The position numbers and the translations under genes are program-made. Positions 1 through 60,219 of a stretch of DNA of 64,000 bases are shown here, in pieces. Numbering within the stretch: the first letter of the stretch is position 1; each line of letters begins with the position of its first letter. The DNA lies in the IMG/VR virus record IMGVR_UViG_3300010885_037795, positions 1 through 64,000 of that record; one strand, written 5' to 3'. The notes below the pieces were generated by a model. It was not told the origin of the DNA. It saw only the letters and a program-made list of their open reading frames with translations, and ran no database searches. The DNA comes from an uncultured virus (IMG/VR IMGVR_UViG_3300010885_037795) (taxonomy: Duplodnaviria > Heunggongvirae > Uroviricota > Caudoviricetes).

Positions 1-300
1 AGCGTTACAACAATTACAGAGGCGGTTGTCCGGTACCTCGAGTTGCGTCTTTATAACAACGGCGATTTAGTATACATACGCTAACACATACACTAAACGT
101 GTGCAATCGCTTGCACGTCTTTTCAGCCTTAACATTTTGTTCAAACAATCAAACTGGGGCATTTAACCAGTCAACATCCTTTCGGGTAGTGATTGAGTAC
201 TCTGTACAGCGCAGAGAATTCCGTCCCTGTGATCCGAGATCCAGGTTTAGGACACCCGAGTTAGGCCGGTGCGAGCCAATACTGTTAACTTGCTAGACTG
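1..300 (-). ncRNA. Candidate structured non-coding RNA of unknown family (3' part probably runs off the window)
   Basis: No credible ORF in an otherwise gene-dense genome. Minus-strand hairpins: GUGCAA-GCGA-UUGCAC (116-101, GNRA loop); a 13-14 bp stem at 97-66 that needs G-U pairs and so forms only on the minus strand; CC-GAAA-GG (185-178); ACUGG/CCAGU (171-153); CAAUCA/UGAUUG (195-190 with 151-146) closing a multibranch junction; CUCUG/CAGAG (216-200); GAGG..CGG-ACAA-CCG-CCUC (39-19). Confidence 0.6.
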
Positions 301-304
301 AGTG

Positions 305-733
305 TCAGAGTTTGTTGATTATGTGTGAGCCATGTACACGAACTTGAATGTGTCCGTTATAGTAGTCTGTTGATTCTAGCACTTTGCGTGTGAATTGTTC
401 TCGGGCTTCGATGTATGAGCATTCTGCTTTGGATTTACAAATAAAGAGGATTTCTCTGGTGAAGTTTTCTGTGCCCAGAGCAACAACATCTTTTGTTAGT
501 TCCGGGCTTGAGCCATAATAGGTGCGCCAATCACTGTCGATCTTGGAGCGGATTTTCTTTTTCTTTTTGGTGCCGTTTTTTAGCTTTACTGTTTTAAGTG
601 TGGTCTTAGAAAATTTTGCTAGTTTTTTACCTATGTACTTGCGGCCAGAGATAGTATTAGTGATCATGTAGACAAACCCAATGCAGTCATCGGGCAGTTC
701 CTCTACTGTTTTGCCTTGAAAAGTCCATGTCAT
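305..733 (-). CDS. Stand-alone GIY-YIG nuclease-family protein
   Basis: GFVYMITN..GRKYIGKK motif, YYGSS, a putative catalytic Glu in IEAREQ and a terminal YYN; Lys-rich insertion; no C-terminal DNA-binding domain. Confidence 0.8.
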   Translation of the reverse strand: MTWTFQGKTVEELPDDCIGFVYMITNTISGRKYIGKKLAKFSKTTLKTVKLKNGTKKKKKIRSKIDSDWRTYYGSSPELTKDVVALGTENFTREILFICKSKAECSYIEAREQFTRKVLESTDYYNGHIQVRVHGSHIINKL

Positions 734-777
734 AATACGTAAACATAATTATCTCGTGCGTCAGTGGGGTTAAAATA

Positions 778-2304
778 TCAGTGTTCTGTGTCAATTTGTG
801 CCAGTTTTACTAGAGGTTTAGTGCGGTCTTGGCCTATAATCTGCTCCGCAATGATCTTCAATATCTTGAGTTCTTCTGTGCCTTTGGTGATGGGATAGTT
901 TAGTCTAGCACTAAGCTCATGCACCTCTAAACGGCGCCGCAAGCGTTCTTTTAGTGTTAATGTTGGGTTATTTAGGTTGATCCAGTTGCGTCCATACACC
1001 CAGTCTTGATCTTGGTCTTCCAAATGGCTCAAGTTCAAATCAGGCCATTCAGGCACCAGCTCAAGTCCTAGATTGCTGAGTTCCAGTCTACTGCCGCGAT
1101 CTATACTGCCTGTGTATCCCCAGCGTATGAGTGCTATGGTACCTGCTTGCATGTACTTTTGATAGCGTTTCAAGAATTGTAGCTGTTCTTTATGATCAGA
1201 CATTGTTTCTGTTGGGTAGCCTATGAACATTAAAAATACGTTTTGTATGCCGTAGCGAGCACACATGCGAATGTGATGATCTAAATCATCGTTGTCAAAC
1301 TCTTTGCCCATGTGCTGTCTTACAGCCCAGCTGGCATGTTCAACTCCAGTGATCAACATACGACTGCCACCTGCTGCCATGGCAGCGTACATTGTTTCTG
1401 GCATGTCTTTGGCCTTGCGTATGTTAAATTGGCTCAGCCATGTGGGCTTGAACTCTGGATTTTCTTGTGACAGTCTAGCAATGTTTATATTAAGAGAATA
1501 AAACTCTTTGAGGTTACCGTTGATAACGCTGTCGGTAAACTGAAACAGTTGTACTTTTGTTTCTTTCCAGTGCTGTAACATTTCATTGGCCATGCTCTCA
1601 CCTGTACGATATTTGTACTTGGGCCAGCGATGTGGCACATCACAAAATGTACAACGGCGCACACAGCCTCGAGAAGCAGTCAAGTAAATGCCTGCTGTTT
1701 GATTGTAAAAGTATTTCCACGGATCTAGCTTGCTGAAGTCTGCAGGAGGCAAAGATTCAATGTCATCAATTTGCACAGTAGGCCGATCATCTGTTCCGTC
1801 TACATCAAAGTTGCCTTGCATCCATTGCTGCCACATGATCTCGCCATCACCCCAGCCCACATGATCCACTAGACTCTGTTCACGCAACCAGTCGCCAAAG
1901 CGTTTGGTGCCGTACGGAGTAGTGAGTCCTTGCCCACCCGCTACCAACATCACTTGACTCATTGGTCGGAAACGTTCACAGAACAATCTAGCCGCACGAG
2001 TACTAAACTTTGAAAACACACTCACTGCCACACAGTCATAGCCGCTGGCAATGATGTTGTCTATAGTGATGTCAAACTCTTCAAACACTCGCTGTGGCAA
2101 CAGCCTGTCATGTGCTGTGCGCCAGTAGTCACTGGCTTCTGCAAATTCTTCTGCTGTCAGCTTCTTTGCCAGTTGTAGATTGATATCAAACACCGTGTAA
2201 TCAATACCCATGTGACGACATAGTCCGCCTAGCACAGCAGGTGCGGCAGGTGGTCGTTCAAGCTCTTGGCTTGGGAAAGTTACAATGGCCACACGTTTAT
2301 ACAT
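778..2304 (-). CDS. Cobalamin-binding (class B-like) radical SAM protein
   Basis: SRGCVRRCTFC (CxxxCxxC); N-terminal Rossmann-like region (VFDIN, VAVSVFS, VAGG, GDGE); GVEHAS and IGYPTET motifs. ATG at 2304 preferred over TTG at 2307. Confidence 0.85.
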   Translation of the reverse strand: MYKRVAIVTFPSQELERPPAAPAVLGGLCRHMGIDYTVFDINLQLAKKLTAEEFAEASDYWRTAHDRLLPQRVFEEFDITIDNIIASGYDCVAVSVFSKFSTRAARLFCERFRPMSQVMLVAGGQGLTTPYGTKRFGDWLREQSLVDHVGWGDGEIMWQQWMQGNFDVDGTDDRPTVQIDDIESLPPADFSKLDPWKYFYNQTAGIYLTASRGCVRRCTFCDVPHRWPKYKYRTGESMANEMLQHWKETKVQLFQFTDSVINGNLKEFYSLNINIARLSQENPEFKPTWLSQFNIRKAKDMPETMYAAMAAGGSRMLITGVEHASWAVRQHMGKEFDNDDLDHHIRMCARYGIQNVFLMFIGYPTETMSDHKEQLQFLKRYQKYMQAGTIALIRWGYTGSIDRGSRLELSNLGLELVPEWPDLNLSHLEDQDQDWVYGRNWINLNNPTLTLKERLRRRLEVHELSARLNYPITKGTEELKILKIIAEQIIGQDRTKPLVKLAQIDTEH

Positions 2305-2893
2305 CAAGAGTTTGTTTTATTTCTTTAATTAATTGTAAATCTTCGTCGCTGATACTGCGATGGTTATCTCGTATCTGTCCTGTGGGGTCAACCAAGGTAC
2401 TGAGCACACGCTGAGTGCGTTGTTCTTGATACCACGACCAAAAGTCTTGACTGTTGGGCAAGTTCATGATCATGTACCTGCCAGGAAAGTGCCATACCAG
2501 CTGACTACGTTGTTCTTTAGGCGCATCAGGATTGCTCCTAAGGTATCCTTGAAAGTAACTGGGATAGTAGTAGTGATCAGTCCAGAACCAAGACTCCAGT
2601 AGAATATCATCAGCGTGTACGCTGAGTAATTCCAAACTTTGATCACGCACAATCTTTCCGTCTTCTAGCACAGTTTCTGATTCGTATTTGTTAAAGTAAC
2701 CAATACTGATGTTGTTGGGGACTTGGGCAAAGTCCACAGTAACACTAGCACTGGTGTCTTTGCTATTAATTTCAAATGTATTAATTTGATAGTTGTTCAC
2801 GAGAATAAAAATCCTGGGCCATGTTACTCCTGGCTGTGGATTAAACTTGAATTCAAAAGTTATTTTGTCACCACGAGGTCGCATAGTTTTCAT
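2297..2893 (-). CDS. Hypothetical protein coupled to radical SAM genes
   Basis: ~200-aa ORF overlapping both neighbours; no recognisable motif; start uncertain (2899, 2893 or 2884). Confidence 0.7.
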   Translation of the reverse strand: MKTMRPRGDKITFEFKFNPQPGVTWPRIFILVNNYQINTFEINSKDTSASVTVDFAQVPNNISIGYFNKYESETVLEDGKIVRDQSLELLSVHADDILLESWFWTDHYYYPSYFQGYLRSNPDAPKEQRSQLVWHFPGRYMIMNLPNSQDFWSWYQEQRTQRVLSTLVDPTGQIRDNHRSISDEDLQLIKEIKQTLDV

Positions 2894-3878
2894 CCACAAA
2901 TTTTTGATTGCATTTGGTTGTACACTCCAGCCACTTGAACTGTTGGAATTCGTTTTTCCAAAAGTTATCAGCTAGCACACTCTCTAGTGTACTATGTTTA
3001 AGGTTGTATGCACGACCTCTATCTAGCCACTCTGTGTTGTGTCCATAGCGGTTGGCTACCCAACAACACGGAAAGAAGTCGCCTTGACTGTTGATAAACA
3101 ATCCTTTGTTGCCCACTGCACACAGTGGTAGGATGTCTCCGGTGTAGTTTTGTTGCGCTTGTGCATAGTGCTGTTTTGCAAATGGGGTGTCTCTAAGCAC
3201 TCGTCCGCTTAGATTATCTATATCTCTTTCAAATCGCATGCTAGAGCTGATGAGTTGATCTCTAGGCTGTAGCGCATCGCTAGGACCGTATATTGGATAT
3301 ACTTTGGCAAATTTGGTACTGCGAGTAAGCTGGAATTGATCCATTTCTAATTCACGTGCTTGCTCACGCATGACATCAACATGATCTTGATTGAATTCAA
3401 ATGCAATAGCGGCCCAGGTAATGTTTACGGGACTTGTGCTTCTCAATGCACGTATACCGCGCATGATGCTCTCCCAATCACTATTGACCCTGTAGATGTT
3501 ATTACTGGCATTATCATAGCCGTCAATGCTGAAATGCACTTGATCTTGTGCCCCTAGGAACCGTCCTAGACCCTGCCACCACAGTGCATTGCGATAGCTG
3601 CCGTTGGTCACAATAACAATTTGCACAGGGTAAATACTCTTGACGTATTCAATTACTGACACCAGCTCATGTGCATATATTGGATCACCATCGTCTCCGC
3701 AAAATGTAATCTTACGCACGTTTTCTCTTATAAAATCAGGAGTAAAGTTTCGTTGAAAGAATGCCAGGTCCAGTTCTGTGTTGACCAGCCCATCTGGTAC
3801 TTCTTGTCTACTGCATCTAGGACAGCGTAGAGTACACTTGCTTGATATCTCAATGTGCCAGTGCCATGTTGCTAACAC
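2868..3878 (-). CDS. Radical SAM protein with C-terminal twitch/SPASM-like Cys cluster
   Basis: CTLRCPRC, CGDDGDP, TNG, FSIDG; C-terminal C...PCC...CTTKC; GTG start overlaps the upstream stop. Confidence 0.88.
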   Translation of the reverse strand: MLATWHWHIEISSKCTLRCPRCSRQEVPDGLVNTELDLAFFQRNFTPDFIRENVRKITFCGDDGDPIYAHELVSVIEYVKSIYPVQIVIVTNGSYRNALWWQGLGRFLGAQDQVHFSIDGYDNASNNIYRVNSDWESIMRGIRALRSTSPVNITWAAIAFEFNQDHVDVMREQARELEMDQFQLTRSTKFAKVYPIYGPSDALQPRDQLISSSMRFERDIDNLSGRVLRDTPFAKQHYAQAQQNYTGDILPLCAVGNKGLFINSQGDFFPCCWVANRYGHNTEWLDRGRAYNLKHSTLESVLADNFWKNEFQQFKWLECTTKCNQKFVDENYATSW

Positions 3879-4783
3879 AAAGCCTCCTCAGACTTCCATT
3901 GTTCTTGAAATGCAGTTTTGTCTTGACCAACAGAGCAGTGTCGTTTACACACAGCATCTGGTTCGGTGATAATACTGTTGAATGATTCCACTTGTTCTCG
4001 TAGTACAGGATTGTCCCACGGCAGTTGTTTACTAAAAATGTCACTGCCAAAAAAGCAACATGGTAGCACTGCTCCTGTTGCTGTGATATAAATGCTTTGT
4101 TCTTTTAATGCATGGCAACTGACAGTGGTGCCTGCGGCCGGTGCAGTATGCCCAGTTGGAGGACGCAACCATTCCACAGGACGTTCCTGGAATCGCGAGC
4201 TTACCTTGGTGCGAAAACGTGTGAAGCCCATGTCACGTGCCAGTTCACGGCAAGCATCAACTTGATGTTGATTGTGTTCGTACACCAGCATGTCCCAGTG
4301 TGCAGTACCACCTGAGGCAATGTATGCTTCTGCATTGGCCATCAGTATGTCCCATTGTACGCCAGCACGGTAGATGTGATTGGTGTCTTCTAGTCCGTCA
4401 ATGCTGAACACCACATAGTCCAGTTCGTTCTTCATGTTGTTGGCCAGCTCTTGCCACCAGTACTTGGTACGCAGGCCGCCATTGGTATTCATGCCTAGCA
4501 CAATCTTGGAGTTGACTGCACGAAAGTATTGATATATCTGTAGTGTGTCTTTTGCTGCCGCTGGGTCGCCAAAGTTACCGCACATGAACATCTTGTCCAG
4601 CTGACGTATCAGCTGATCTGGCACTAGTTGTTGTACTTGATTGAGTCGTAGTTCACTAGCATGCTGTTCATGAACATACTGCTCAGGATTCATTCGGGCA
4701 CACTGAGGGCAAGCCGCATTGCAAGTGGTAGTGGGCTCGATGTGTAGTACTCGGATGTTGTCATAGTTAAACTGCGTCAACAT
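3872..4783 (-). CDS. Radical SAM protein with C-terminal twitch/SPASM-like Cys cluster
   Basis: CNAACPQC, CGNFGDP, NTNG, FSIDG; C-terminal C...PCC...CKRHC; ATG at 4783 overlaps the gp46 end. Confidence 0.88.
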   Translation of the reverse strand: MLTQFNYDNIRVLHIEPTTTCNAACPQCARMNPEQYVHEQHASELRLNQVQQLVPDQLIRQLDKMFMCGNFGDPAAAKDTLQIYQYFRAVNSKIVLGMNTNGGLRTKYWWQELANNMKNELDYVVFSIDGLEDTNHIYRAGVQWDILMANAEAYIASGGTAHWDMLVYEHNQHQVDACRELARDMGFTRFRTKVSSRFQERPVEWLRPPTGHTAPAAGTTVSCHALKEQSIYITATGAVLPCCFFGSDIFSKQLPWDNPVLREQVESFNSIITEPDAVCKRHCSVGQDKTAFQEQWKSEEALC

Positions 4784-6539
4784 CGGTGTTGTAGGAAGTG
4801 AATCCATTTTCTTTTACCACGGTCAGTATGTTGTTTACACGACTGCTCAGTTCGTCCTTGTGACTCACAAGCCAAATACTCTTGTTACGTTCTCGACTCA
4901 TCTTTTTAAGAATACCCAGTGCTGATTCAACACCACTGGAGTCCATACCCGAATCAATCACTTCGTCAATAAACAACAGGTTGATGGGCTGGTATAAACT
5001 TTCCCACACATCGCGGAATGACCAACTTAGACTTAGAATAAGTCTGTTACGTTCGCCACGACTTAGATTGTCAAAATCTAGTTCTCGACCCAGCTCACTG
5101 ATATTTACCGTAAGATCGTTTTGAAAAATCACAGTGTGCGGCAGGCCAATCTTGTCAAGATAGTAGCTTAGTCGTTGGTTTAAGTAGGCCAAGTTCTGAT
5201 CAATGATGCGTTTGCGCACAAACGAATCTTTGGATGTCAGCAATTTAAGCAAGAAGTCTTGATGGTCACGCAGACTAACCAGTCTGTTCATTTCATCATA
5301 GTCAATATCTTCTTCTGCTTGTGTTTTCATTTCTGCAATTTGTTCCACATATGGATCAGCTTCTGCATCCTTGGCCACCAACTGACTCAGGATATTGCCC
5401 AAACTTGCACGATGCTCAAATGCATCGGACTCTTTGTCGTAGTAGGTACGTGGTGCAGGGCCAGGCTCGCCTAGTTCTTTTAGTGCGCCTGTGAGCTCAA
5501 TCCATTGACCGTTTGTTGCCAAGGCTTGCAGTGCAGCCTCTTGCAGACTCTTGCGTTTGTCTGCCAGCACCTGCTCGTGCTTTTCGTCATGCATTTCTTG
5601 TCCACAAGCATAGCACTTGTGATCTTCTAACTGTGCAATTTCTGCCTTGAGCTTGTCTACTACCTTGGTTTCTTTTGCTTCGTCTAGCTCACAACGAGCA
5701 ACAAGTTTTTGTATGTCAGCACGATCTTTAAGCAGTTGTGAATGCCGTGTTAGATCCTGATGCATCAGTAGTTCTGCTTCAATATCAATCTTGGCCAGTT
5801 CGTCGTAGGCTGATTGTAGCTTGCCCAGATCTTCGTCTTTTTTCTTTTGCCACATGCCTTGTCTGCGTATGAGATTAGACACTTGTTCTTTCAGTCGCTC
5901 ATTGGCATCCTGTACTGCTTTGATACGGAATTCTTCTTTGACAATTCCGTCCTTGCTGGCTTTGAGCTGTTCTTTGAGATTTTCTGCTTTTTCACTCAGT
6001 TGTGTCACACCCAGCAACTGCTCAATCATTGTGCGTTGTTCTGCGGCTTTCAAACTAAGGAATGGTTCTGTGTGGGTATTGAGGGCAACAATGTTTCGAA
6101 ACATGTCATGACTCATACCCAGCATGCGTTCAATGGCGGCTTGGGTTTCACGACTGTCGCCTTGACTTTCGTCTGTTACTTCTTGTTCTTCTCCGCCAAT
6201 GTAAAACTTCACAATGTTGGGTTTGCGGCCACGTTCAATCTTGTAGCTCACACCATTGGTTTCAAACTCAATAGTGACCAACATGGCCTTGCCGTTGGTT
6301 TTGTTGATCAAGTTTTCTTTACGGATGTTGGTCAGTGCTTGCCCGTACAGTGCAAAACTCAGGGCATTGATGATTGTGGTCTTGCCAGTGCCATTACGTG
6401 CGCCTGTGTCATCCCCGCCCAAGTCCAAGTTTTGTCCCAGTACCAGTGTAAGGTCATTGCGATTGAACTTGATTGCCTGCGTGGAATTGCCCACGCTCAT
6501 GAAGTTTTTGACCGTAAGGTCTTTGATTACAAAACTCAT
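4767..6539 (-). CDS. gp46: Recombination nuclease ATPase subunit (T4 gp46 / Rad50 / SbcC-like)
   Basis: KNFMS, Walker A GTGKTT, coiled coils with a CYAC zinc hook, signature LSRGE, Walker B LFIDE, His switch VSHK. Confidence 0.95.
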   Translation of the reverse strand: MSFVIKDLTVKNFMSVGNSTQAIKFNRNDLTLVLGQNLDLGGDDTGARNGTGKTTIINALSFALYGQALTNIRKENLINKTNGKAMLVTIEFETNGVSYKIERGRKPNIVKFYIGGEEQEVTDESQGDSRETQAAIERMLGMSHDMFRNIVALNTHTEPFLSLKAAEQRTMIEQLLGVTQLSEKAENLKEQLKASKDGIVKEEFRIKAVQDANERLKEQVSNLIRRQGMWQKKKDEDLGKLQSAYDELAKIDIEAELLMHQDLTRHSQLLKDRADIQKLVARCELDEAKETKVVDKLKAEIAQLEDHKCYACGQEMHDEKHEQVLADKRKSLQEAALQALATNGQWIELTGALKELGEPGPAPRTYYDKESDAFEHRASLGNILSQLVAKDAEADPYVEQIAEMKTQAEEDIDYDEMNRLVSLRDHQDFLLKLLTSKDSFVRKRIIDQNLAYLNQRLSYYLDKIGLPHTVIFQNDLTVNISELGRELDFDNLSRGERNRLILSLSWSFRDVWESLYQPINLLFIDEVIDSGMDSSGVESALGILKKMSRERNKSIWLVSHKDELSSRVNNILTVVKENGFTSYNTDVDAV

Positions 6540-59430: not shown

Positions 59431-59525
59431 GTTGGCTTAAAAAAATATACAACAGAATTAAAATGGAAATTGCTTATCGCAAGCGATTAAAAGAGTTGCG
59501 TAAACGAGATCCATTTATCTACTGA
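59427..59525 (+). CDS. Small basic 32-aa protein MSWLKKIYNRIKMEIAYRKRLKELRKRDPFIY (absent from the ORF track)
   Basis: ATGA overlap with the upstream stop, CAGGAG ribosome-binding site, and its stop lies 1 nt before the next ATG, exactly filling the gap. Confidence 0.8.
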   Translation: MSWLKKIYNRIKMEIAYRKRLKELRKRDPFIY

Positions 59526-59526
59526 C

Positions 59527-60219
59527 ATGAAAAAAATACTTGTTCTAGCCTGTAGTAGCGGATTGGGCGTCGAATGCGAAGATGTAATCAATCATTGCTG
59601 GCCCAACATACTAGGAGACCTTACTAACACCGCAGTAACCAATGCCTCTGAAGCTGGCGGTAGCAATGACATGATGTATCGCAAAGCACTGTCAATGACT
59701 GCAACTGAATCGTATGACCTGGTATTGATTGCATGGACAAACATTGATCGCATGGAAGTGTATTTTAACGAAGAGATTGTGTCTAATAGATTACCTGACG
59801 TACTAATCAGTGAAAAATTTCCTCGTGTGCAAGGACCTGGGCCAGTCAGTGTGTCTCATCATTGGAGTGACTTGCCTTGGATTGAAAAATACTATGGCAT
59901 GCACTATAATGAACGTTACTTACTAGAGCGATGGTTGCACCAAGCAATCACACTTCAAGAATATTTCAAAGCCAAAAAACAGCCATTTGCTTACATATCA
60001 AACTTTGGAAACACTCAGTATCTAAAAAATCATACAGACATTCCTATGTTAAAGATGCTGGATGTAAAATCTTGGATTGGTAACTGGCCTGGGTCAACTT
60101 TACGCGACTGGGGTGCACCAATTGGCGTACACAAATATGGTCATTTTACGTTAGACGCACATAAATTTATTGCAGAAAAAATACATGAGCATATTAGGAA
60201 TCGCGGCTGGCTTTCATGA
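59527..60219 (+). CDS. Divergent SGNH-like protein
   Basis: LVLACSSGLG (block I-like), WP..L, N.S.AGGSN, WT..DR.E and C-terminal GHF...H; parallels 57590. Confidence 0.65.
   Translation: MKKILVLACSSGLGVECEDVINHCWPNILGDLTNTAVTNASEAGGSNDMMYRKALSMTATESYDLVLIAWTNIDRMEVYFNEEIVSNRLPDVLISEKFPRVQGPGPVSVSHHWSDLPWIEKYYGMHYNERYLLERWLHQAITLQEYFKAKKQPFAYISNFGNTQYLKNHTDIPMLKMLDVKSWIGNWPGSTLRDWGAPIGVHKYGHFTLDAHKFIAEKIHEHIRNRGWLS

Follow-up and report, generated by a model that had tools for sequence, protein, structure and literature searches.

GOLLD and ROOL are large orphan non-coding RNAs (ncRNAs) that phages often carry, and HEARO is another large ncRNA. ColE1 RNA II and the T4 origin R-loop transcripts are long structured transcripts, while the IS110 bridge RNA and the omega RNAs of IscB and TnpB are structured RNAs that lie beside the gene for a small DNA-cutting or DNA-joining enzyme. 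Like GOLLD, ROOL and HEARO, the RNA described here spans several hundred nucleotides, combines covarying helices with conserved junctions, and occurs in phages and mobile elements; unlike them, its full-length loci match only RF01718 at E ≤ 1 (compared via Rfam), and it has no tRNA neighborhood. It resembles the ColE1 and T4 transcripts as a structured transcript that ends a row of replication and recombination genes, with an RNase H gene adjoining in one locus, but there is no sequence or model match to them and no GC-skew signal. As in the IS110 and IscB/TnpB systems, two loops vary between copies and an enzyme gene adjoins. Unlike in the bridge RNA, the two loops are identical here and are not matched to two different DNAs; unlike in either system, there is no mobile insertion sequence, and the adjoining proteins belong to other families that are also found without the RNA.

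The RNA belongs to the Polynucleobacter-1 family. This motif was first described by Weinberg et al. (2010, Genome Biol 11:R31; PMC2864571), whose Table 1 marks it 'cis-reg? y, switch ?' and who give its carriers as Burkholderiales and freshwater or estuary sequences. The Stockholm alignment of that paper (supplementary file 5) holds 16 rows, mostly long forms of ~275-300 nt, and stops at about nt 280-300; the Rfam model ends at nt 141 and does not include the 3′ part of the long forms (PMC2864571). In the alignment, that 3′ part comprises a hairpin with a GNRA-type loop, a long hairpin, the sequence GCCGUUG.., a CGAGGUACCGGNNNACCGCCUC hairpin and a pseudoknot, annotated as SS_cons_1, that joins the loop of the long hairpin (UAGCGU) to the 3′ end (ACGCUA). 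A search of full-text literature found the names 'Polynucleobacter-1' and 'RF01718' only in Weinberg et al. 2010.

Identity and parts of the RNA in the window

The window analyzed here, 64,000 nucleotides long, covers bases 1-64000 of a linear viral record (74,019 bases) whose contig begins at window base 1. The sole above-threshold match to Rfam 15 in the whole window was RF01718 (Polynucleobacter-1 RNA) at 143-277 on the minus strand (cmscan; 110.9 bits versus a gathering score of 37, E = 3e-23). This match spanned the full model (positions 1-141 of 141), the remaining Rfam matches were at chance level, and the whole record gave the same outcome; the RNA is present in one copy per phage record. 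The initial annotation had suggested a large ncRNA of a possibly undescribed class and had proposed cmscan against Rfam as a check, and the strong match to a known family overturns that suggestion and removes the novelty. The part of the RNA outside the Rfam model (window 1-142) is likewise already contained in the 2010 alignment, pseudoknot included. Window 142..1 tracks the long-form rows of that alignment helix for helix, with their hairpins, the GGUACCGG..ACCGCC hairpin and the SS_cons_1 pseudoknot, and ends inside the pseudoknot 3′ strand; by eye, the 3′ domain of several rows is nearly the same as that of the window copy. Because window 142..1 follows these rows, the whole finding, and not just its upstream half, corresponds to the described motif. 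Window 277..1 (minus strand) almost certainly represents the opening 277 nt of an RNA of this known orphan family, Polynucleobacter-1, here in a giant T4-like freshwater phage. As a family member, the window copy is unremarkable and is cut by the contig end; the class has been known since 2010 and is not new.

The window copy shares with the family its full 141-nt model match, the 3′ half of the published long forms and a freshwater source. It departs from the motif as given in the 2010 table and alignment in two respects: there, the motif is a 'cis-reg' candidate of Burkholderiales and freshwater sequences, whereas here it sits on T4-like phage contigs where a leader role fits poorly; and there it ends at about nt 280-300, whereas the homologues found here are conserved to ~440-500 nt. 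Besides RF01718, no Rfam family matched at E ≤ 1 in six full-length viral loci and one bacterial locus, and a blastn search with window 300..1 found no match in 50,697 deposited phage records. The initial annotation had not recognized consensus elements of tRNA, tmRNA, RNase P or group I/II introns; no Rfam model of these families matched, and ARAGORN found nothing there and no tRNA genes in the window.

All helices and loops that the initial annotation had named were recovered in place on the minus strand. A 27-nt spacer (278..304, minus strand) separates the stop codon of the upstream GIY-YIG gene (307-305) from the Rfam start. It contains ACAGUA, part of the motif AGGCAAA..ACRGUA that is kept upstream of the RNA in relatives; since the reading frame in which the upstream ORF's end runs through this motif differs among the relatives, it is the nucleotide sequence that is kept. 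The 5′ domain (143..277, minus strand) is the part matched by RF01718 in cmscan and shows covariation in helices 2-8 and in P1, which lies at about 272-252; P2 and P3 also fall within it. Near its 3′ end, a 6-bp helix, CAAUCA/UGAUUG (195-190 with 151-146), encloses two hairpins, at 186-178 and 172-152, the first of which reads CCCGAAAGG in the sequence, with a GAAA loop at 183-180.

An A-rich junction (..AAGGCUGAAAAGAC..) and a 6-bp hairpin at 116-101, closed by a GCGA loop at 110-107, make up 99..142 (minus strand) and are found in the long-form rows of the 2010 alignment. The next element (65..98, minus strand) is the stem placed initially at 97-66; it is a covarying hairpin, 98-65, of 14 pairs, five of them G-U or U-G, which the plus strand would turn into A-C mismatches. 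The loop of this hairpin, UUAGCGU (84-78), provides the 5′ strand of the pseudoknot. The following stretch (6..64, minus strand) consists of the junction GCCGUUG and a helix of CAAC (46-43) with GUUG (11-8). Nested within this helix is a hairpin of GAGG/CCUC (39-36/22-19) and CGG/CCG (32-30/25-23). The stretch includes invariant columns of the viral alignment described below (A1) and contains the invariant GGUACCGGNNNACCGCC (37-21), which served as a search pattern. Finally, ACGCU (1..5, minus strand) is the pseudoknot 3′ strand that pairs with 84-78 in SS_cons_1; the contig end cuts this strand, so that the window copy retains five pseudoknot pairs.

Open reading frames in 1-304 are short (at most 65 aa), in line with the initial description of this stretch as the longest non-coding gap in the window. 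A seemingly longer ORF-free gap at 59431-60169 turned out to contain a 230-aa ORF, and Rfam gave no hit there. In two relatives, short tandem repeats (units like CUAUAGUCAA) are inserted (L018:4025-4172 and L015:2190-2337, both plus strand); they occupy the loop closed by CAAC/GUUG, just 5′ of the pseudoknot strand.

Covariation and the 3′ extension

The 17-letter pattern taken from the invariant stretch found at least 120 viral-contig loci. Using window 300..1 as query, nhmmer identified homologues in 64 of the 120 matches listed, nearly all of them full-length, and 60 distinct viral sequences among the matches listed were assembled into alignment A1. RNAalifold on these 60 homologues predicted 40 pairs, of which 25 were compensatory. 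When the published-type structure was placed on A1, 83.7% of cells were paired versus 67.7% in shuffles (0/500 shuffles reached 83.7%), while slid controls of the same structure gave 35-48%. Moreover, 55 of the 68 pairs of this structure change on both sides, and the covariation score was 0.416 versus 0.155. The hairpin at 98-65 (helix 11) was 89.1% paired, with 13 of its 14 pairs changing on both sides; the pseudoknot (helix 12) was 91.4% paired, with 6/6 pairs compensatory; and the enclosing helix 195-190/151-146 was 94.7% paired, with 5/6 pairs changing on both sides. Compensatory changes were also found in all four pairs counted in helix 9, the stem of hairpin 116-101, and, within 6..64, in 4/4 pairs of helix 13; helices 14-15 of that stretch were nearly invariant in A1. 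The RF01718 consensus helices P1-P4 and the multi-stem junction are kept by compensatory changes as well; helix 1 (P1) was one column off register in the hand-written structure and scored 14.3% paired there, and RNAalifold supports P1.

The single-sequence fold of 304..1 was no better than shuffles (z = -0.96, 17/100 shuffles equal it), and the plus-strand fold gave z = -0.23. Because the single-sequence fold is ordinary relative to shuffles, the support for the fold is covariation and not folding energy. These results demonstrate that window 1-277 (minus strand) is a structured RNA with a pseudoknot, kept by compensatory changes. The initial annotation had read a strand-specific structured RNA from the minus strand and had proposed collecting homologues and testing covariation; the compensatory pairing, with G-U pairs, in the 60 homologues listed bears this reading out. 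The two GNRA loops that it had stressed are present in the window but are not conserved in homologues: at the GAAA site, 14/60 sequences of A1 have a GNRA tetraloop and 37/60 a UUNACM hexaloop.

The initial annotation had also expected the RNA to run beyond base 1, and indeed the contig begins there and conservation in homologues reaches ~165 nt past the matching point. Measured from the Rfam start through the final hairpin, homologues have a median length of 442 nt (range 367-554; n = 46, among the matches listed), and the window copy therefore lacks ~165 nt. The whole RNA is ~440-500 nt long, and the catalogued 141-nt family is its 5′ third. An RNA about three times longer than the Rfam model is new for this orphan family. 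The lacking 3′ part was not found elsewhere in the record, where one chance match with two mismatches occurred.

Relatives continue past ACGCU with ..AA GUGAC.. and ~165 further nucleotides. GUGAC is followed by a variable stem whose loop contains ACUC plus a 7-mer, then by a GC-rich hairpin that covaries (CUUUGCCC/GGGCAAAG or, for example, CUUAGCCC/GGGCUAAG), and then by GUGAC-N-AUCU plus the same 7-mer. In 30/61 loci among the matches listed, a UUC-triloop hairpin comes next. The extension closes with an A-rich linker and two hairpins, the first built as stem-GA-(2 bp + loop)-GAA-stem and the second as AGA...UCU. By strict script criteria, the last two hairpins are present in 49 of 61 loci among the matches listed. 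RNAalifold on a MAFFT alignment of the extension found almost no structure, with variable stems misaligned; since this alignment misplaced them, the extension hairpins were read by anchored scripts. A covariance model of the terminal two-hairpin module, built from 15 phage loci, gave one match each in 50 of the 64 viral loci listed at E ≤ 0.01, the 15 training loci included; the window and six control loci from cultured phages had no match.

The 7-mer after ACUC is the same as the 7-mer after AUCU in 55/55 phage loci among the matches listed, and eight different 7-mers occur among these loci (for example, in L053:305-452, minus strand, just past the equivalent of window base 1). Their covariation is thus parallel, not complementary, and no pairing partner for the 7-mers was found in the 5′ 300 nt (mutual information ≤ 0.39 bits). 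Bacterial copies have motifs of the same design, AACUC-NNNN-AAAG and AAUCU-NNNN-AAAR, that flank a hairpin; the variable 4-mer is identical in both motifs in 8/9 distinct loci, and two RNA copies within one bacterial genome differ in it. No further copy of the variable motif was found within 20 kb of the bacterial loci. The paired 7-mers are compatible with a single partner that is read twice (a dimeric protein or one nucleic-acid sequence), or else with DNA repeats that evolve in concert. A motif pair in strict parallel covariation is new for the family; together with the longer RNA and its phage carriers, it adds to the print record and gives handles for experiments.

Genomic settings in phages and bacteria

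In the window, the RNA lies directly 3′ of, and on the same (minus) strand as, a gene for a 142-aa SegE-type GIY-YIG protein that consists of this domain only (305..733; Pfam PF19835, E = 4e-34; phrog_447); RF01718 at 143-277 thus sits just downstream of the GIY-YIG gene of a viral record, as first annotated. We compared gene order in 43 loci longer than 2 kb among the matches listed. The conserved order is a gp47-like SbcD gene (phrog_100), a gp46-like SbcC gene (phrog_77), a small ORF, the GIY-YIG gene and the RNA; a variable gene or none comes after the RNA, followed by a convergent small ORF and a T4 baseplate-hub gene (PF12322, phrog_150). This comparison shows that the carriers are T4-like phages with the RNA in one fixed genomic slot, after gp47-gp46-(small ORF)-GIY-YIG. 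One relative is 345 kb long and 99% complete. That T4-like phages are the main carriers in the viral collection, with a fixed slot, is also new for this family. In one subgroup, which includes the window, radical-SAM genes are inserted between gp46 and GIY-YIG. At 778-4807 (minus strand) of the window, these genes encode proteins of 509, 336 and 311 aa (SPASM in one) and are accompanied by a 200-aa ORF of no family.

The GIY-YIG cluster protein is encoded directly upstream, on the same strand, in at least 36 loci. In two others, a 173-aa PDDEXK_15 nuclease replaces it (L047:3221-3742, plus strand; L026:1198-1719, minus strand), and in L026 an RNase H gene (749-1168, minus strand) is immediately upstream of the RNA. 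Another gene directly precedes the RNA in L027, L042 and L059, with the GIY-YIG gene further upstream in L042 and L059. A tblastn search found the GIY-YIG-only protein in 456 deposited phage records, the best match being Methylophilales phage Melnitz at 51%. In six of these records that were inspected, there was either no downstream room for the RNA or no Rfam hit, and Rfam searches of six cultured-phage loci around the GIY-YIG homologue returned nothing at E ≤ 0.1. The GIY-YIG protein can do without the RNA.

When genome contigs were searched with a pattern based on the published short-form rows, six loci emerged, among them a Burkholderiaceae chromosome and Polynucleobacter metagenome-assembled genomes (MAGs), and all six matched RF01718 at 75-104 bits. 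The terminal module built from phages had one match per bacterial locus on the same strand (E between 6e-8 and 2e-3); in L128, L129 and L133, where the gap was measured, the module lay 290-302 nt further 3′ than the RF01718 hit. L128 and L129 carry RNAs with a total span of 482 and 496 nt, respectively. The bacterial 'short forms' are not short. We consider it shown that the full 440-500-nt RNA is common to giant T4-like lake phages and integrase-bearing Polynucleobacter islands. RF01718 scored above cut-off in 13/121 species genomes of the genus of one locus, in some of them twice; because only 13 genomes have a match, the RNA is an accessory element in that genus.

In the bacterial loci, a divergent DUF6641 gene lies upstream of the RNA, and small same-strand ORFs and a 188-aa integrase-family gene lie downstream; the next same-strand genes encode 124-258 aa and are followed by the 188-aa integrase. 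An AAA ATPase gene and a 424-aa integrase gene are also near the bacterial copies. DUF6641 is absent from the window's record and five other phage records. Because the RNA follows a divergent gene in Polynucleobacter chromosomes, the chromosomal RNA needs its own promoter. TAAATAA occurs within 90 nt upstream of the RF01718 start in 11/11 bacterial-type loci listed. The bacterial copies keep GCTAAATAAC upstream, which in L137 reads TATAAATAAA.

The 188-aa protein amounts to a phage-integrase-family catalytic domain alone, and it is encoded repeatedly ~0.6-1.3 kb downstream of chromosomal RNA copies; its genes are at L129:5089-5655 (plus strand), L133:2033-2599 (minus strand), L145:10260-10826 (plus strand) and L144:18088-18654 (minus strand). 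L144 (G111:C1:400200-420199) holds two DUF6641 and RNA copies, 18 kb apart and in the same orientation. The island between them carries heavy-metal, SMR, ArsR, MFS and LlaMI-type restriction genes, two integrase-family genes and an AAA ATPase gene, and the variable 4-mers of the two RNA copies are AGCG and AGAG. A phage-type copy, with the phage-type upstream motif and the T4-like extension, is found on a contig binned into a Polynucleobacter MAG (L139; G118:C80:7050-9200). This contig is a weak hint at the phage host, or a binning error.

Transcription and possible roles of the RNA

No TAAATA motif or sigma-70 match was found upstream of the phage RNA, and a scan of window 1-900 for consensus promoters and terminators found none, the terminal module lying off the contig. 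Because no promoter motif lies upstream, the simplest inference is that the gp47-gp46-GIY-YIG transcript continues into the RNA and has it as its tail. Four RNA libraries yielded contigs of depth 2-4 that include the GIY-YIG gene and portions of relatives' RNA: in one relative, a 292-nt contig spans the joint between gene and RNA (264-439), and a second contig reaches from the 3′ domain to the extension. RNA libraries can hold DNA, and with low-depth pieces uncovered parts mean nothing, so these contigs are a weak hint at transcription across the joint. The relatives' terminal hairpin ends in UCU and 1-3 U only, which does not make an intrinsic terminator.

The reading that we rate slightly above even is that the window RNA, as a Polynucleobacter-1 RNA, is a stand-alone, compactly folded, trans-acting ncRNA of mobile elements. 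In phages, it would be transcribed as the tail of the early/middle gp47-gp46-GIY-YIG gene row, might then be excised from this transcript, and would act as a compact RNA or RNA-protein particle and not as the leader of the next gene; its two motifs with identical 7-mers would bind the same partner twice. The RNA's own conserved 3′ module, the occurrence of the GIY-YIG protein without the RNA, the need for a separate promoter in Polynucleobacter chromosomes, the single copy per phage record and the downstream genes of the phage loci (below) favor this reading. Against it, a nuclease gene nearly always adjoins (GIY-YIG in at least 36 loci, PDDEXK_15 in two), which could mean a functional tie that we discount here; the terminal hairpin has only a short U run, and the single-sequence fold does not beat shuffles. 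In bacteria the next genes are on the same strand, so that the RNA may act as a leader there.

The 2010 table entry would instead make the RNA a cis-regulatory, riboswitch-like leader of the downstream gene, and the same-strand next genes of the bacterial copies and the highly conserved junction nucleotides are consistent with this. The 'cis-reg' label is its authors' guess on function and not a defining structural feature of the family, and among the phage matches listed the first downstream gene is convergent in 13/32 loci. In the other 19, the same-strand downstream genes fall into 10 protein clusters, and 18 of these 19 loci, versus 0/13 convergent ones, have a T4-late-type TAAATA between the terminal hairpin and the start codon. 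The motif takes the form (T/A)ATAAATA or TAAATA (for example, in L037, L023 and L061) and looks like a T4-type late promoter. No conserved regulated gene was found downstream of the RNA in phages among the matches listed. The leader reading misfits phages because of the convergent genes, the separate TAAATA motifs and the RNA's own conserved terminal hairpin module, which closes it; furthermore, ~450-500 nt far exceeds typical leaders. We therefore regard a leader function as improbable.

Equally improbable, in our estimate, is a conflict or dependence element common to phage and host island. Under this explanation, chromosomal copies in integrase-bearing islands, possibly satellites, would be activated by phage late transcription of the TAAATA type, and the phage copy would be the cognate signal, a decoy or a target. 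The patchy distribution in the genus (13/121 genomes, some with two copies), the nearby AAA ATPase gene and integrase-family genes (188 and 424 aa), the two copies that bracket an 18-kb cargo island in G111 and the phage-type copy on the Polynucleobacter MAG contig all speak for it, as does the TAAATAA upstream of all 11 bacterial-type loci listed, whose core also precedes phage genes. However, TAAATAA could be part of an ordinary AT-rich promoter, satellite hallmark genes were not identified in the islands, and no protein is common to both contexts, DUF6641 being absent from all six phage records searched. At a similarly low probability, the two 7-mer motifs may read one nucleic-acid core twice, as a specificity or bridging partner for DNA enzymes or as a token of recognition between phage and island.

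A function at the DNA level is slightly less likely still. The element would then be a replication origin whose primer transcript is structured, in the manner of ColE1 RNA II or a T4 R-loop, or else a set of iterons or a site of recombination, with the identical 7-mer repeats as candidate protein-binding or crossover sites. The direct repeats do evolve in concert, being identical in all 55 loci among the matches listed, an RNase H gene is just upstream in L026, and cis-acting sites, like this element, are often common to phage and island. The compensatory, strand-specific pairing with many G-U pairs and a pseudoknot argues instead for selection on RNA, and the cumulative GC skew of the 345-kb relative has no extremum at the locus, which is a weak test for T4-like phages.

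The least likely explanation, drawn by analogy with HEARO/IscB omega RNA or the IS110 bridge RNA, is that the RNA would be a partner or guide for the neighboring catalytic-domain-only DNA enzymes (the 142-aa GIY-YIG protein, the 173-aa PDDEXK nuclease and the bacterial 188-aa tyrosine recombinase), with identical 7-mer loops that would read matching DNA cores: a nuclease gene adjoins in almost all phage loci listed, from a different family in L047 and L026, the 188-aa integrase lies within ~1 kb in several bacterial loci, and motif covariation is parallel rather than complementary, but the GIY-YIG-only protein is present in 456 phage records and the RNA absent from all six inspected, the bacterial loci contain no matching target copy within 20 kb, and the locus is syntenic, not mobile.

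Finally, the GIY-YIG-only 142-aa protein is labeled 'NAD synthetase' in many phage records and in phrog_447; because Pfam assigns it to SegE_GIY-YIG, this label looks like a propagated mis-annotation.
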